Source of the DNA: an uncultured Lachnospiraceae bacterium | GTDB lineage: Bacteria; Bacillota; Clostridia; Lachnospirales; Lachnospiraceae | Assembly: GCA_951802115.1 (NCBI GenBank) | Contig: CATOPL010000013.1 | Location: 18,011 to 82,010, forward strand | Reading direction: 5' to 3' | Length of the DNA stretch: 64,000 nt | Shown here: positions 12,330-63,356 of the stretch, one piece after another | Layout: every line of letters starts with the position of its first letter | How positions within the stretch are numbered: the stretch's first letter is position 1 | The notes under the pieces: model-generated | The model's input: the letters and a program-made list of their open reading frames with translations, nothing else | Databases searched by the model: none | Told to the model about the DNA's origin: nothing | Made by a program: the position numbers and the translations under genes

Positions 12330-12491
12330 TTTCGTTTCCTCCTGTTTCAAGTTCTCTCTCTGTCCGCACATCTTCCCATGAACCGGAACACGTTCCGGAT
12401 GCATCCGTGCCCTGAAACTATTTCATATATTATGCAGACAGATACTGTTTGAATTGTCAAACATACTCAGATGCACAACTGCATTCTGTTT

Positions 12492-40043: not shown

Positions 40044-42041
40044 CTAAACAAATTCAAGAATCCGACGGTTGGAGGGATTGTCGTAATCTTTGCAAACCCC
40101 GTCGTCATCATACATGATATATGCAGAGGACGGATATCCAATCATCGTCAGATGTTCCGTGTCCAAAGCCGCCACGCACTCTGCAAAATCCGCCAGAGGG
40201 ATACATTTTCCTTTCCGGATAAACAGCGGTACCTCGTTCAGAGCAATCTTTACATAATGATGCCCGGCAGGCAGTATCTCTTCGTGCAGAGAACCGTCCG
40301 GCAGGAATTTGACAAACTTCATCTCCTCAGGCAGATAAACGTATCTTCCTGCTGCATTCTGGCTGTATACAGGAGCAATCATCATCTCGTCTCCGAGCAT
40401 CAGCTGGTCTTCTACCTGAACTGCATGTGGATCTTCCGGATAGACGAACGCCAGCGGCCTGAAATACAGATCATCTGAAAGCGCCGCTTTCATGTACTCG
40501 CTGTACAGATACGGGAGCAGCCGGTAACGAATCCCGATTATATGCCGGAAATCTTCCACTCCTTCAAAGCGGAAGCATTCCTGATCTCTTGTACCCATGG
40601 CAGAATGGTTGCGCATAAGAGGGGTAAACACGCCCAGCGCCAGCCAGCGCAGCAGCAGATCCCTGGTCGTATCCGCACCAAATCCGCCCAGATCTGCACC
40701 GGTGTAAAGAAATCCGCACATATTCAGAGACGGCATCATTTTCAGATTCAGAAGAATATGACTCCACCAGGATTTGTTGTCTCCGGTCCAGATTCCTCCA
40801 TAGCGGTGCATTCCTATATAAGAAGAGCGGGAAAACATCAGAAAACGTTTTTCCGGATTGATCCTCTCAAAAGCTTCTCCGGCTGCTCTGGTCATATTGT
40901 ATCCAAACAGGTTGTGAACCTTATCATGACGAATCTGCCGGCCGTTTGCCTGATGATAAAACGACGCATAATCTTCCTTATTATTGGAAAGTCCAAGCAC
41001 CGCATCTTTTGCTTCAAAAAACGATACCTTTCCCTGCGTATCCTGAAAAAATTCTTTTACGATCTCTTCTGCTCTTTGTACTCCTTCCGGCGTATAAAAA
41101 ATAGCCGGCTCGTTCATGTCATTCCAGAAACCTTCAATCCCCTGATCTGTCAGAATCTTATATTTGTCTCCAAACCACGCTCTGGCTTCCGGATTCAGTA
41201 CATCAGGAAAATGAGTGTCTCCCGGCCACACAGCCGCCACAAAATCGCTGCCGTCTTCTCTCTGGCAGAAATACCGGTTTTTGACCCCTTCTTCATAAAC
41301 ATCATATCCTTTTTCCACTTTTACGCCTGCATCAATAATGGGAATCAAACGGATATTCTGCTCTTTCATCTCCTGCACAAAGGCCGGAAAATCCGAGAAA
41401 TTTTCTTCATTCAGTGTGAAATCTTTGTAATCCTGCATGTAATCAATATCCATGTAAATCATATCAACCGGAATATGATTCCTGCGGTATCCTTTTGCCA
41501 CTTCACGATAGTCCTCTTTTGTCCGATACCCCCAGCGGCTCTGTCCGAATCCGAACGCAAACTTCGGCGGAATATAACTCCTGCCGATAATCCGACGGAG
41601 CTGTTTTACAATCTCATAGGGTGTCTTTCCTTCAATCACGTATAAATACAAGTCTGCATTTTCACAGGTGACCGTCAGAGTATTCATCCGCGTATAACCG
41701 ACATCAAACGTCATTCTGGACGGATAGTCAAAAAACAGGCCAAATGTCTGCGTGCCGGAAATCACGATAAAATTATGAGCCGCATACAGAGAGCTTTTGT
41801 CCTCCATATGCTCCGGATCATCTGTACAGTCGCTGATATAGCGATATCCCCTTTTGTTGATTCCCCGGTTCGCCTCACCAAGTCCGTACACCACATCTTC
41901 TGCGTCCAGCAGACAGGTAAAGCAAAACCCGTTTTCCAGACTGATGTCCCCATATGCCGGTGCCCCGCATACCGCCTCCATCTGTACCGTAACAGCTTCC
42001 GTTTCAAAAGGTGTCCCATAGACGTATTTCTGAATCATCAT
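40044..42041 (-). CDS. Alpha-glucosidase (GH31)
   Basis: IYMDIDYM, GFWNDMNEP, WTGDNKSWW, GADLGGF, MRNHS. Confidence 0.92.
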   Translation of the reverse strand: MMIQKYVYGTPFETEAVTVQMEAVCGAPAYGDISLENGFCFTCLLDAEDVVYGLGEANRGINKRGYRYISDCTDDPEHMEDKSSLYAAHNFIVISGTQTFGLFFDYPSRMTFDVGYTRMNTLTVTCENADLYLYVIEGKTPYEIVKQLRRIIGRSYIPPKFAFGFGQSRWGYRTKEDYREVAKGYRRNHIPVDMIYMDIDYMQDYKDFTLNEENFSDFPAFVQEMKEQNIRLIPIIDAGVKVEKGYDVYEEGVKNRYFCQREDGSDFVAAVWPGDTHFPDVLNPEARAWFGDKYKILTDQGIEGFWNDMNEPAIFYTPEGVQRAEEIVKEFFQDTQGKVSFFEAKDAVLGLSNNKEDYASFYHQANGRQIRHDKVHNLFGYNMTRAAGEAFERINPEKRFLMFSRSSYIGMHRYGGIWTGDNKSWWSHILLNLKMMPSLNMCGFLYTGADLGGFGADTTRDLLLRWLALGVFTPLMRNHSAMGTRDQECFRFEGVEDFRHIIGIRYRLLPYLYSEYMKAALSDDLYFRPLAFVYPEDPHAVQVEDQLMLGDEMMIAPVYSQNAAGRYVYLPEEMKFVKFLPDGSLHEEILPAGHHYVKIALNEVPLFIRKGKCIPLADFAECVAALDTEHLTMIGYPSSAYIMYDDDGVCKDYDNPSNRRILEFV

Positions 42042-42047
42042 GCATTC

Positions 42048-42298
42048 CTCCTATTATAGTTCCGCATCTGCATCTCGCAAGACCTCTTTCTCTGGAAGCA
42101 TTTCCAGACTCTTCGGGTCTGTAAATCCTTCCCGGACTTTCTCGTTCAGATGCTGTCTTGTAGTTCCGCATCTGCATCTCGCAAGACCTCTTTCTCTGGA
42201 AGCATTTCCAGACTCTTCGGGTCTGTAAATCCTTCCCGGACTTTCTCGTTCAGATGCTGTCTTATAGTTCCGCATCTGCATCTCGCAAGACCTCTTTC
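42048..42298. repeat. Tandem array of a 104-bp structured repeat (2.3 units); same family as 63080-63356
   Basis: GTTCCGCATCTG at 42059/42163/42267 and CAGATGCTGT at 42147/42251; units nearly identical. Confidence 0.93.
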
Positions 42299-42417
42299 CA
42301 TACCTTCAAGATGAATAAAAGTATATATACTTTTTCTTGAAAATACTTGCATTATTTTATAAAATAGATAACACAATCCTGACATTTTATAGTTTTTCTG
42401 CCAGAAGGAGATTGCTC

Positions 42418-46200: not shown

Positions 46201-47835
46201 TTATCCGTCAAGTTTTTTGACTGTGAGAATGGCGTTGGTACCGCTTCCCAGCGTTACTCCCACAGCAATCAGTGCAGAAAGTGCCATATCAATGACGTCT
46301 CCTGCCGCCAGTGTAACGATTATGCTGCCGTTAAACAGCGTATTAACGCCGACAGAGAGTACTCTTGACACTGTTGCGCCCGGTATATTTGTACCGTTTC
46401 TGCGAACCGCTGTTGTAACAGTAGTCCCCAGCGCTGCTGACATTGTAGTGGCATAGGTAATCTCATATGCCCCGGGAGCCGTGATCGTAATGCTGTTTGC
46501 CGGAGTGTAGGTAAGATTCTCGGACGGCATAGTAGCAGGCATAGGAATCTGAGTTGTACCCCCAAGGGTCAGATTCAGAGTCTGAGGATCTGTATTGTAC
46601 ACTCCTCCATACGAGGCCAGCCCATTTGCCGGACCGGTTGGACCGGTCGGGCCCGTTGCTCCGGTTGCTCCCGTCGGACCGGCAGCTCCCTCAATTCCCT
46701 GTGGACCCGTCGGACCGGTTGCTCCGGTCGGGCCGGCAAGACCCTGGATTCCCTGCGGGCCCGTCGGGCCGATCTCTCCTGTAGGGCCGGTGACTCCGGT
46801 CGCTCCGGCAGGTCCGGTCGCTCCGATTGCCCCGACAGGTCCCTCAATTCCCTGCACACCCGTCGGACCGGTTGCTCCGGTTGCCCCGGCAAGACCCTGA
46901 ATTCCCTGCGGGCCCTGCGGACCCGTCGGGCCGATCTCTCCGGCAGGACCGGTGACTCCGGTCGCTCCGGCAGGTCCAGTCGCTCCGGTTGCTCCGGTTG
47001 CCCCGGCAGGTCCCTGAAGCCCCTGTAAGCCCTGTGGTCCCTCAGGTCCTGCCGCCCCGGTTACACCTGCAGGACCAACTGCTCCAGTCACCCCGGCTGC
47101 TCCTGCAGGGCCGGTCGCTCCGGCAGGCCCAGTCGCTCCCGTCGGGCCGGTTGGACCGGCAGGTCCTTGCAGCCCCTGTAAACCCTGAGGGCCGACAGGT
47201 CCGGTTGCTCCAACGGCACCAGCCGCGCCCGGAAGTCCTTGCAGCCCCTGTGGACCTGTGGGGCCGGTCGCTCCAGTCGGACCAGTCGCACCAACCGTGC
47301 CCGGAAGTCCCTGAAGGCCCTGCGGGCCCTGCGCTCCGGTTGCCCCAGTCGGGCCCTGCGGTCCCTGTACTCCCTGTGCTCCGGCAGCTCCGGTCGGGCC
47401 GGTCACCCCGGCTGCTCCTGCAGATCCAGTCGCCCCGGTCGGGCCAACCGGACCCTGAAGTCCCTGAGAACCCTGAGGTCCCTGCGGACCTGTGGGGCCA
47501 ACCGGGCCTGTGGGTCCTTGCACTCCCTGTACACCGGCAGCTCCGGTAGGGCCGGTCGCCCCCGGCGCTCCTGCCGGGCCTGGAATTCCCTGAAGTCCCT
47601 GCGGGCCTTCAGGACCTATCGGGCCTTGCGGTCCCTGCGGACCTTGCGGACCTTCGATTCCTCCTGGTCCCATTGGTCCCTGCGGACCTGTCGGACCCTG
47701 GTATCCCCTCGCTCCCGTCGGACCCGGACATCCTCGCGGGCCCATCGGACCTGTCGGACCCTGGCAGCATCTGTTATTTTGCTGTCCCGGACATCCACAG
47801 GAGTTATTGTCACAATTTCTTCGGAAAAAATCCAT
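46201..47835 (-). CDS. Collagen-like (BclA-type) spore-surface protein
   Basis: Cys-rich N-terminus, ~380 aa of Gly-X-Y (GPT/GAT/GPQ) triplets, C-terminal beta-rich domain ([13 protein letters not shown]...AAGDVID). Confidence 0.9.
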
Positions 47836-60833: not shown

Positions 60834-63074
60834 TTACACCCGAATCTTTGTGCCTTTTTGATCGCGTCCCGCCAGCTTTAGCTTCTGAAGCGCCACCTCT
60901 TTTTCTTTATATGTGATGGTCATTTCCGTTCCCTTTGTAAATAAATAAGCCTCTTCCAGACTGTCTGTGTCGGAAAGCTTCATCGCGCGCACACCAACCG
61001 CAGCCTTCTTTTTCTCCGGTATCTCTTCTGCGCCAAACCGGAGGAAATATCCTCCTTCTGAACGGAGAACAACCTGCATATTCTCACCGGTAAGGGCAGC
61101 CAGCAGCACCTTATCTCCTTCATTCAGTTTTGTCGCCATGCTGGTTCTTGTCCGCACATCATACTCCTGACCATCCACTACTTTACTCATTCCCTGTGCT
61201 GTTACAAAAAGCAGCTTTCCGGCAATGAGCATTTCCATGCTGACTACACAGAGCATCTGTTCCTGACTGCTGTCAAAATTGCTGTAGTTATCAACGGGAA
61301 ACGCCTTGTCGCGAAACTTTCCAAACGGCAGATCCAGAACTTTTACTGTATGCATCTTTCCTTTATCTGTAAAGACGCAGATCCGATCCGTATTCTTGCA
61401 TAAAATCACATAGCGGCTTTCGTTGTCCGCCGCTTCTTTGTTTCGCTCATACGTAGGCACATCGACCGTTCTGCAATATCCAAAACGATCCATCAGGAAG
61501 ACCACCGGCATCTCTTCCACTTTTTTCTCCACAAAAATAGCCTCTTTCCCGTTCTCAATGACTGTACGGCGCGGCGCGGCATACGCCTTTTTGAAACTGT
61601 CCAGTTCCTTAATAATAACTTTCATCATCTCATCATAATTGTTCAGGATCTCAGAATAACGGGCAATATTTTTCATTGTGGTCTCATGTTCTTTCATAAG
61701 CGCCTGAATTTCCAGGCCAATCAGCCGATAGAGCCGCATTTCCAGAATCGCTGTTGCCTGGCGTTCTGTAAAATTCAGCTTCGCCGCCTGTTTTTTGGAT
61801 TTTTCTGACCGGAACCTGATACCTTCAGTCTTCCCGTTCATAAGGCAGGCCTTCGCCATTTTCAGATCCTGGCTTCCTCTGAGGATCTCTATAATCAGGT
61901 CAATCACATCACAGGCCCTGATCAGTCCTTCCTGGATCTCTTTTTTATCCAGCTCTTTATTCAGCAGCGTCTTATACTTTCTTGTATTCAGTTCAAACTG
62001 AAAATCAATCACATGATCCAGAATCTGAATCAGCCCCAGTGTTTCCGGTCTTCCGTCCGCCACTGCCAGCATATTGACGCCGAACGTATCTTCCAGACGA
62101 GTCTTTTTATAGAGCATATTGATCAGCTGCTCTGTATCCGCACCTTTACGGAGCTCCAGCACAATTCTGATTCCTTCTTTTGACGACTGATTTGTGATAT
62201 CCACGATATCCGTGGTCTTTTTATTCTCCACCAGCGTCCCGATGTCATTTAAGAACTTGCCGATGTTTGCCCCGATCATGGTATAAGGAATCTCGGTGAT
62301 CACCAGCTGTTCTTTTCCGCCTTTTACTTTCTCCACTTCCACTTTTCCGCGAACTTTGATTTTACCGCTGCCTGTGCGGTAGATCTCTGTCAGTTCATCC
62401 TTGTTCACAACAATTCCTCCGGTCGGAAAATCCGGTCCCGGCATAATTTTCAAGAGCTCCTCCAAAGTCAGCTTTGGATTCTTCATATACGCTTTCATGG
62501 CGTCAATCGTTTCTCCCAGATTATGAGGAGGAATGCTGGTAGACATTCCGACTGCAATCCCTTCTGCCCCATTGATCAGCAAATGGGGTATTCTGGCCGG
62601 AAGAACTCTCGGTTCTTTTTCTGTCTCGTCAAAGTTCGGCACAAAATCCACGATATCTTTGTCCAGATCTGCCAGCAGCGCTTCCTCACTGACTTTCTGA
62701 AGCCGGGCTTCTGTATAACGCATAGCCGCCGCCCCGTCTCCTTCAATAGAACCAAAATTCCCATGTCCGTCCACCAGCGGCAGTCCTTTCTTAAAATCCT
62801 GGCTCATAACCACCAGCGCCTCGTAAATGGAACTGTCTCCATGAGGATGGTACTTACCCATCGTATCACCCACAATACGCGCACACTTCCGGTAAGGCCG
62901 ATCGCTTCGAATTCCAAGTTCATGCATGTCATAAAGCGTACGACGCTGTACCGGCTTTAACCCGTCCCGCACATCCGGCAAGGCACGGGCCACGATTACG
63001 CTCATGGCATAGTCAATATATGACTTCTGCATGACGTCTGAATATTCAGTTTTTATAATCAACTCTTCACTCAT
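60834..63074 (-). CDS. parC: Type IIA topoisomerase subunit A, probably topoisomerase IV
   Basis: [43 protein letters not shown]. Short C-terminal domain with no QxRGGKG GyrA-box, so ParC rather than GyrA (inference). Confidence 0.85.
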
Positions 63075-63079
63075 ACATT

Positions 63080-63356
63080 CTCCTATTATAGTTCCGCATC
63101 TGTCTTCCTCCATCTCTCTTTCCCTCGAAGGCTGTTCTTACACATCCGTGTCTGAACACCCTTCCTGATATGGACTCGACAGATGCTGTTGCTTTTTCTT
63201 ATTATCGTTCCGCATCTGTCTTCCTCCATCTCTCTTTCCCTCGAAGGCTGTTCTCATACATCCGTGTCTGAACACCCTTCCTGATATGGACTCGACAGAT
63301 GCTGTTGCTTTTTCCTATGATCGTTCCGCATCTGTCTTCCTCCATCTCTCTTTCCC
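63080..63356. repeat. Tandem array of a 116-bp structured repeat (2.3 units) between parE and parC
   Basis: GTTCCGCATCTG at 63091/63207/63323 and CAGATGCTGT at 63180/63296; 23 nt identical to 42048-42070. Confidence 0.93.

Follow-up and report, generated by a model that had tools for sequence, protein, structure and literature searches.

A probable lineage-restricted family of structured repeats inserted before native Shine-Dalgarno sequences in Lachnospiraceae

Introduction

Mycobacterial interspersed repetitive units (MIRUs) are repeats of 40–100 bp present at ~40–50 copies per genome (Delihas 2011, PMC3184786, after Supply et al. 1997). Within operons they occupy the gaps between cistrons, pointing the same way as the genes and frequently repeated a few times in tandem, and they are co-transcribed. 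Both filled sites and empty ones, with short direct repeats, have been described, the same site being bare in relatives. The units also contain small ORFs that overlap the neighbouring stop codon at one end and the start codon at the other (PMC3184786). The REP2 repeats of Neisseria and the IR-A and IR-B repeats of Borrelia bring their own promoter, ribosome-binding site and ATG, and form two separate stem-loops (PMC3184786).

Here, we analysed a 64,000-nt stretch of DNA (the window) from an uncultured Lachnospiraceae bacterium, which holds two tandem arrays of a repeat comparable to these systems. As in MIRUs, the unit is ~100 nt long and is found intercistronically, in gene sense and in tandem, at 39 loci of the genome. 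However, it contains no conserved or coupling ORF, consists of a single covarying rod with a fixed junction to the Shine-Dalgarno (SD) sequence, shares no sequence similarity with MIRUs and belongs to another phylum. Like Neisseria REP2, the element is found around the translation start of many unrelated genes. In contrast to REP2 and the IR repeats, the adjoining SD and start codon belong to the host gene (unchanged between empty and filled sites of tsf, parC, ileS and the GH31 gene), the element forms one long rod, tandem arrays are common, and a promoter-like match occurs at one locus. The element has the defining features of neither MIRU nor REP2.

Other small repeats offer further points of comparison. 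Correia (CREE), ERIC, BOX and RUP elements have conserved terminal inverted repeats and many near-identical copies in both orientations, and can change mRNA processing. Our element resembles them in being non-autonomous and hairpin-forming, in being co-transcribed with its neighbours, as judged from its position, and in having A/T-rich direct repeats at its borders, but its terminal helix covaries freely, its copies are ~70% identical and its orientation is strictly sense. REP/BIME elements are GC-rich palindromes of 20–40 nt with a conserved 5' tetranucleotide, arranged in inverted pairs, and include a REP-flanked Y1 (RAYT) gene. Integron attC sites have the pairing ends R'' (RYYYAAC) and R' (GTTRRRY) within a cassette array beside an integrase. 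Type III antitoxin repeats are tandem and are followed by a terminator and a toxin gene, and CRISPR repeats are split by unique spacers.

Results

Two arrays in the window belong to one family

Tandem Repeats Finder placed array 1 at 42054–42298 (period 104, 2.4 copies, 98% matches) and array 2 at 63081–63356 (period 116, 2.4 copies, 96% matches). The initial annotation had read them as 104-bp and 116-bp units of one family, with common unit ends, a GAAAGAG tract and central hairpins that differ in sequence and keep their pairing. All of this held. Tandem Repeats Finder and a covariance model show both arrays to be real and of one family, the ends ACAGCATCTG...CAGATGCGGAAC and the GAAAGAG tract are present in each, and the central hairpins differ in sequence between the arrays and remain paired, from both sequence and folds. 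The resemblance of the arrays is far beyond chance, with E-values for the family down to 1e-21 (nhmmer, covariance model). The 2.3 units counted per array are made up of a 3' partial unit of 33–49 nt followed by two full units. The features are listed below, where G000 denotes the source genome, a 3.3-Mb draft; other G numbers denote sampled relatives.

42267–42299, minus strand: 5' partial unit of the GH31 array, the 3' third of a unit, GGAAAGAGGTCTTGCGAGATGCAGATGCGGAAC (sequence).
42163–42262, minus strand: distal full unit of the GH31 array, rod P1–P5 (covariance model, G000:C13:60173-60272, 74.8 bits, E=1e-15).
42059–42158, minus strand: SD-proximal full unit of the GH31 array, with its GCGGAAC end at 42059–42065 (covariance model, G000:C13:60069-60168, 74.8 bits; unconstrained fold).
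42047–42058, minus strand: tail TATAAT (42053–42058) of the GH31 array, abutting the native SD AGGAGG (42047–42052) (sequence).
42039–42041, minus strand: GH31 start codon (sequence).
40044–42041, minus strand: GH31 glycoside hydrolase gene, downstream of array 1 (Pfam PF01055, E=4e-109).
63375 onward, minus strand: gene for the matching B subunit, upstream of array 2.
63308–63356, minus strand: 5' partial unit of array 2, starting ~20 nt past the stop codon of the GyrB/ParE-like gene (sequence, Tandem Repeats Finder).
63207–63307, minus strand: distal full unit of array 2 (covariance model, C13:81217-81317, 57.3 bits).
63091–63191, minus strand: SD-proximal full unit of array 2 (covariance model, C13:81101-81201, 64 bits; sequence).
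63072–63090, minus strand: tail TATAAT (63085–63090), native SD AGGAG (63080–63084) and ATG (63072–63074) of array 2 (sequence).
60834–63074, minus strand: topoisomerase IV/gyrase subunit A paralogue of 746 aa, downstream of array 2 (Pfam PF00521, E=3e-146; PF00986).
12359–12448, minus strand: probable degenerate third copy, AAACAGTATCTGTC...GACAGAGAGAGAACTTGAAACAGGAGG, before an alanyl-tRNA synthetase-like gene (nhmmer only, E=2e-5, 26 bits).

On the minus strand the two arrays share the 3' end CAGATGCGGAACTATAATAGGAG, followed by the start codon of the gene, as originally noted. Array 1 ends ...CAGATGCGGAAC-TATAAT-AGGAGG-AATGC-ATG before the GH31 glycosidase, and array 2 ends ...CAGATGCGGAAC-TATAAT-AGGAG-AATGT-ATG before the topoisomerase IV/gyrase A paralogue, whose junction in element-free relatives keeps AGGAGAAT(A/T)TATG. 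A second A-subunit paralogue of ~835 aa is also present in relatives. The inter-unit linkers of array 2 are 15 nt long and GATAATAAGAAAAAG-like; they look like degenerate copies of the tail and SD, which would account for the 116-bp period. The probable third copy gave no covariance model match at E≤0.01. ORFs of 75 and 79 aa cross the GH31 array (42054–42385, minus strand); they are products of the repeat, and their misannotation as genes is likely.

A dispersed family with a fixed position before the SD

Iterated nhmmer recovered ~58 units in G000. The covariance model (R1; 99 positions, 35 pairs), seeded with eight hand-checked units, found 60 units (62 in another tally) at 39 loci of 1–4 units each. 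The initial proposal of a dispersed, non-autonomous, structured repeat family with real covariation is borne out by these ~60 units and by the double changes in their paired columns, and gene context at the 39 loci likewise confirms that its sites are the leaders and intercistronic gaps of unrelated genes.

On the sense strand the unit reads AAACAGC-[rod]-GCGGAAC-TNTAA and spans ~100 nt. All arrays are in sense orientation to a gene, with GCGGAAC-TNTAA(T)-AGGAG as their 3' end. At 37 of the 39 loci, an SD and a start codon opening an ORF of 63 aa or more are found on the same strand, 14–29 nt past the terminal GGAAC; the remaining two are a contig end and a GTG start overlooked by the script. 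The same rule is valid in relatives and in a sister genus. No common function links the downstream genes: ackA, tsf (EF-Ts), ileS, alaS, pheT (PheRS beta), parC, rfbA, flgE (flagellar hook), iscR, thiI, PrmA, PTS and ABC genes, and GH1 and GH31 glycosidases.

Most arrays fill an intercistronic gap, since ~26 of 37 start no more than ~45 nt past the stop codon of a same-strand ORF. The others are located in short leaders. At ileS (G000 C25:31430-31600 and orthologues), a conserved T-box-like leader with the terminator GGCTCCGTCCTGTTACAGGACGGAGCCTTTTTT precedes the gene, and the repeat lies between this terminator and the SD. Several genes bear the element in more than one species, namely ileS, iscR, an anti-sigma-like gene, an ABC ATPase, tsf, parC and a DUF362-like gene (named from its N-terminus only). 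This recurrence exceeds chance and thus some copies are old and have been retained.

GC skew in G000 is very strong, at about ±0.15–0.22 in 60-kb windows. The repeat loci lie on the leading strand in 37 of 39 cases, compared with ~71% of ORFs of at least 300 aa; the other ~29% of these ORFs are on the lagging strand. At the two lagging-strand loci the array is still oriented with the gene, and no antisense array was found among those seen in G000, G003 and the other relatives examined. Three draft contigs of G000 end inside arrays (C18 at its end, C15 at its start and C3 at its end). The copies C15:25-126 and C3:264500-264600 are upstream of an AddA-like helicase gene and look like two sides of one array.

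The unit folds into an unbranched, covarying rod

Unconstrained single folds gave the same unbranched rod for ~25 of 29 units. It comprises an outer helix, P1 (GCAUCUG/CAGAUGC plus a variable extension), a variable P2, a bulge of 7–11 nt on the 3' side with AGA as its first bases, P3 (GGAAG/CUUCC), P4 (AUUU/AAAU) and a variable tip. The flanks AAACA and GGAAC are unpaired. Three motifs are conserved across species, either unpaired or fixed in sequence: AAACAGC, GGAAG/CUUCC with AGA after it, and GCGGAAC.

Applied to a plain MAFFT alignment, RNAalifold recovered the outer helix alone, because the variable stems were misaligned. It was replaced by the hand-checked seed, the covariance model and a model-based alignment of 108 units (103 distinct) from G000 and 11 relatives. 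In this alignment 82.7% of cells were paired, versus 67.6% after shuffling and 33–47% when the partner was slid by 1–3 columns. Changes on both sides were seen in 35 of 35 modelled pairs among the 103 distinct units. Double-change cells numbered 480 versus 131 ± 10 in shuffles, none of 500 shuffles being as high; such counts lean towards structure because the alignment was fitted to the model, and the unconstrained single folds provide the independent check.

G-U and U-G pairs outnumbered A-C and C-A combinations by 79 to 27 (p=4e-7, one unit per locus, 66 loci). The base composition favours A-C, opposite to the observed excess, and thus the sense strand is the folding strand. The molecule that folds could be either the mRNA or the template DNA of the lagging strand, since 37 of the 39 loci are on the leading strand; the strict gene-sense orientation, including at the two lagging-strand loci, favours RNA as the folding molecule. 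Taken together, the covarying stems and the G-U excess behave like an RNA fold kept by selection. In the predicted minimum-energy folds of whole arrays, units pair with their neighbours in an alternative register, the 3' half of each with the 5' half of the unit that follows (z-scores of −4.5 and −8.3), and the SD is unpaired in both folds.

Filled and empty sites place the element before a native SD

The SD of the downstream gene had initially been assigned to the repeat. Empty sites overturn this assignment: element-free relatives have an unchanged SD and SD-to-ATG spacer at rpsB-tsf, parE-parC, ileS and GH31. The comparison that the initial annotation had called for, with empty sites in relatives, shows that the elements are insertions, that the SD is native and that presence turns over among related species.

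The parE-parC junction is compact in ten sampled species, with the stop codon overlapping or abutting the SD, for example GATATATAGGAGGCACGGCATG. Most of these ten have no element anywhere; G009 and G012 carry it elsewhere. At this junction G000 has 2.4 units, G003 an array of quite different sequence, and G015 a footprint only, AACGGAACTATAAATAGGAGAATGTATG, while six other species have unrelated insertions of 30–150 nt. The rpsB-tsf gap holds one unit common to G000 and G015 (97% identical) and a divergent unit in G012, and is empty in 11 species. The native ATAGGAGGAATAAA-N-TCATG does not differ between filled sites and the empty ones of G044 and G009. In the ileS leader, G000, G003 and G005 have full units, G006 has a mini unit reduced to P1, and G014 has a remnant; the leader is short and empty in G012, G009, G044, G008 and G004. 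In the GH31 leader, a conserved promoter region is followed by a differing insert in nearly every species; the array is confined to G000, with a footprint in G003 and an empty site in G015. Orthologous pairs of copies are 0.65–0.80 identical (0.97 for tsf in G000 and G015), versus a background median of ~0.70.

As judged from these sites, the element ends 0–1 nt before the native SD, and its sole contribution there is the TNTAA(T) tail. T precedes AGGAG at 68% of element loci versus 9% of other genes with that SD, and AAT-AGGAG is found at half of the element loci. Since the tail is element-derived while the SD is native, the junction is exact to the nucleotide. At the left border, the stop codon of the preceding gene is often inside a TNTAA abutting AACAGC, so that TNTAA occurs on both flanks; these direct repeats are inseparable from the element's own tail. 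Together, the TNTAA repeats at both ends and the exact SD junction suggest that there may be a site preference, or microhomology-anchored copying, at TAA...AGGAG.

Arrays are homogeneous and loci are divergent

Identity within arrays has a median of 0.97. Between loci the median falls to 0.68 (maximum 0.87) in G000 and to 0.71 (maximum 0.84) in G003. No young dispersed copies were found in G000 or in G003, which holds at least 100 units; because no two loci in either genome are more than 87% identical, there is no sign of recent transposition. The star-like divergence, at ~70% identity, and the covarying stems have the look of a selected RNA family.

About two thirds of the G000 arrays begin with a partial or internally deleted 'mini' unit that keeps the end GCGGAAC-TNTAA. 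In multi-unit arrays the truncated unit is always the 5'-most and the SD-proximal unit is always full, which hints at a function of the proximal rod.

Some tandem neighbours are not near-identical, at L188 (G020) and L191 (G015). Two adjacent units of L188 have an identical tip and differing P1 helices, CAAAAACC.../...GGUUUUG and CAAUCACCC.../...GGGUGAUUG, each internally complementary. This pattern suggests either recombination between differing units or independent insertions side by side. At L208 (G020:C13:58382-58480), a unit has the identical 20-nt unique flank AACGAAGATACGGGTATAAG on both sides, with no SD or start codon directly behind it. This looks like a tandem duplication whose period included flanking DNA.

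The family is restricted to part of one genus and a sister genus

Of 24 other species in the genus, 13 were matched by the covariance model, each with 3 to more than 100 units, and hundreds of units of the same architecture occur in the assemblies of 12 other species. Element-bearing species are mostly those nearest to G000 in the identity of ParC, Tsf and IleRS. Of the 200 other genera sampled within the family, one shows the same architecture and another has one copy, on a tiny contig; no match came from 16 other families of the order. The source organism of G000 is a Lachnospiraceae of the mouse gut, and a degenerate pattern scan, in which nearly all other matches were by chance, detected true copies in MGBC mouse-gut Lachnospiraceae records. 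The 17 pattern matches on viral contigs were all rejected by the covariance model, leaving no confirmed viral copy.

Comparison with described elements

A match to a known Rfam family had been a possible outcome. Neither array matched Rfam at gathering or permissive thresholds, with nothing credible at E≤10, and the sole gathering-threshold match in the window is a tRNA. No linked transposase, as suggested at the outset, was found either. Y1/HUH genes of the IS200/REP type do not track the element across species: Y1 genes (PF01797) are absent in the element-rich G014 and G015 and present in the element-free G010 and G043, and the G000 copy is an ordinary IS200-like gene with hairpins unrelated to the element.

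We rejected several identities. REP/BIME with RAYT does not fit rods of 100 nt in direct tandem only with which Y1 does not track, and a Correia-like MITE does not fit a P1 that varies and covaries, with a maximum inter-locus identity of 0.87. The ends AAACAGC and GCGGAAC are off the attC consensus and do not pair with each other, and the loci are at dispersed housekeeping genes. CRISPR repeats and antitoxin repeats of type III toxin-antitoxin systems were dismissed, as the units are contiguous with no unique spacers and are followed by housekeeping genes (39 loci). No terminator-like site was found at the GH31 array, the one region scanned.

Functions internal to the unit were considered as well. 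A conserved upstream ORF from the AUG of GAUGCGGAAC was rejected, as this AUG gives way to UUG, CUG or ACG wherever P1 covaries. No ORF or start codon is conserved within the unit, neither period (104 or 116 bp) is divisible by three, and the element's tail closes two of three reading frames. A STAB-SD-like purine bulge was rejected since the AGAAAGGAG-like sequence common in G000 is replaced by AGACNNNGGGG in relatives. The last GH31 unit alone contains a sigma-70-like match, TTGCGA-16-TATAAT (10/12), with its -35 part in a variable helix; a general internal promoter is not supported, the match being at one locus only.

Discussion

We propose, with a probability of roughly 0.6, that the element represents an undescribed, lineage-restricted family of structured interspersed repeats, similar to MIRU and REP2, which inserted before native SDs and was locally amplified. 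It behaves as a genomic repeat family and not as a single-pathway switch or a signal-specific regulator. Comparisons of filled and empty sites show that units inserted into once very short gaps, either from stop codon to SD or from promoter or T-box terminator to SD, each insertion being flush with the native SD. Arrays would then arise in place by tandem duplication or unequal exchange, which would explain why neighbouring units are ~97% identical. The 5'-most unit would tend to shrink through internal deletion, such that arrays decay from the 5' side.

Judging from its position, the element is probably transcribed within the mRNA. There, P1 would join the ends of the rod and keep the upstream stop codon or 5' end near the downstream SD, which would lie on a short unpaired A/U-rich linker. 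The self-contained fold may be the reason why the insertion is tolerated, and it might even benefit the downstream cistron slightly by serving as its 5' hairpin and spacer. This would account for the compensatory changes and the sense-strand G-U pairs. Four observations sit less easily with an interspersed repeat family: no two loci exceed 87% identity in G000 or G003, the SD-proximal unit is always intact with truncated units on its 5' side, gene overlap between species is above chance with some copies retained, and the Y1/HUH comparison yielded no mobilising enzyme.

In the main rival reading, the element is a cis-acting RNA module under purifying selection. It would act as a generic leader of ~40–100 mRNAs, whose translation or stability would be set by a global trans-acting factor (a candidate being an RNA-binding protein, a ribonuclease or the ribosome), and its spread would be secondary. 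The covarying stems, the G-U excess on the sense strand, the motifs AAACAGC, GGAAG/CUUCC then AGA, and GCGGAAC conserved across species, the fixed register with the SD and the ever-intact proximal unit are consistent with such a module, as are the star-like ~70% identity between loci with no near-identical dispersed copies and the same genes bearing the element in several species. However, the target genes share no common pathway, and full, mini, footprint and empty states flip at one gene among close species. Unlike tandem riboswitches, the tandem units are near-identical and variable in number. The family is confined to part of one genus and one sister genus of 200, and element-free species keep tightly coupled junctions, evidently with no need of it. 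We regard the leader module as a tentative and rather doubtful alternative.

A bolder possibility is that the rod acts at the RNA level as an expression cassette that propagates itself by homing to SDs at their 5' edge. Homing would proceed via microhomology or pairing at TAA...AGGAG, possibly with the element's own CUUCC strand, which resembles an anti-SD. Selection would then keep the SD-proximal copy, as it would insulate, stabilise or couple translation of the downstream cistron. We consider this unlikely; if true, the rod would be a new class of SD-targeting element.

Single-strand DNA transposition is a possible route of spread. The corresponding reading of the family as a whole, as a DNA mobile element moving as a folded single strand (IS200/IS605-derived, REP/RAYT hairpins or a MITE with TA-rich target duplication) and keeping its structure for the transposition machinery, appears to us quite improbable. 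It would accommodate the filled and empty sites, the TNTAA or longer GCGGAAC-TNTAA direct repeats flanking most arrays, the asymmetric conserved ends and the foldable strand being the lagging-strand template at 37 of 39 loci against ~71% of long ORFs, and most element-bearing genomes do have Y1 transposase genes. Yet Y1 is missing in G014 and G015 and present in G010 and G043, and the ordinary IS200-like copy of G000 has its own, unrelated hairpins. The outer helix, which would be the terminal inverted repeat, is freely variable in sequence, and there are no young copies and no confirmed copies on viral contigs. No antisense array was seen in G000, G003 or the other relatives examined, and the two lagging-strand loci follow the gene. 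Finally, although some contig ends coincide with arrays, locus-specific minisatellites or assembly artefacts lacking a wider family are refuted by the 60 model matches at 39 loci in G000 and the hundreds in other species with the same architecture.

If the interspersed repeat family is the correct reading, it has written part of the 5' UTR and intercistronic sequence of these gut commensals, landing at ribosome-binding sites with a precision of one nucleotide and being tolerated since it is folded away. Tight junctions such as parE-parC and rpsB-tsf would have been opened repeatedly during operon evolution. For RNA motif discovery, strong covariation need not mean a riboswitch, and for annotation, the arrays split assemblies and create false ORFs. 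Should the rod insulate or stabilise downstream cistrons, it would offer a natural portable 5' UTR part for Clostridia.

Other repeats occur in the same surroundings. Unrelated structured insertions of 100–400 nt are found in the leaders and gaps of relatives, in the GH31 leaders L235 (G002), L232 (G019) and L237 (G044) and the parE-parC gaps L151/L157 and L155. They include a long palindromic insert in G044 and a 105-nt insert common to G002 and G019 that ends ...TATTTAAGACAGCAATCG-TCAGGAGG. The GH31 leader and the parE-parC gap look like general hot spots for several repeat families. Within the window, Tandem Repeats Finder also detected a dense block of 9-, 18-, 27-, 54- and 153-bp periodic repeats at 46600–47750, rich in GGN/CCN triplets, which looks like a gene for a collagen-like (G-X-Y) repeat protein on the minus strand.
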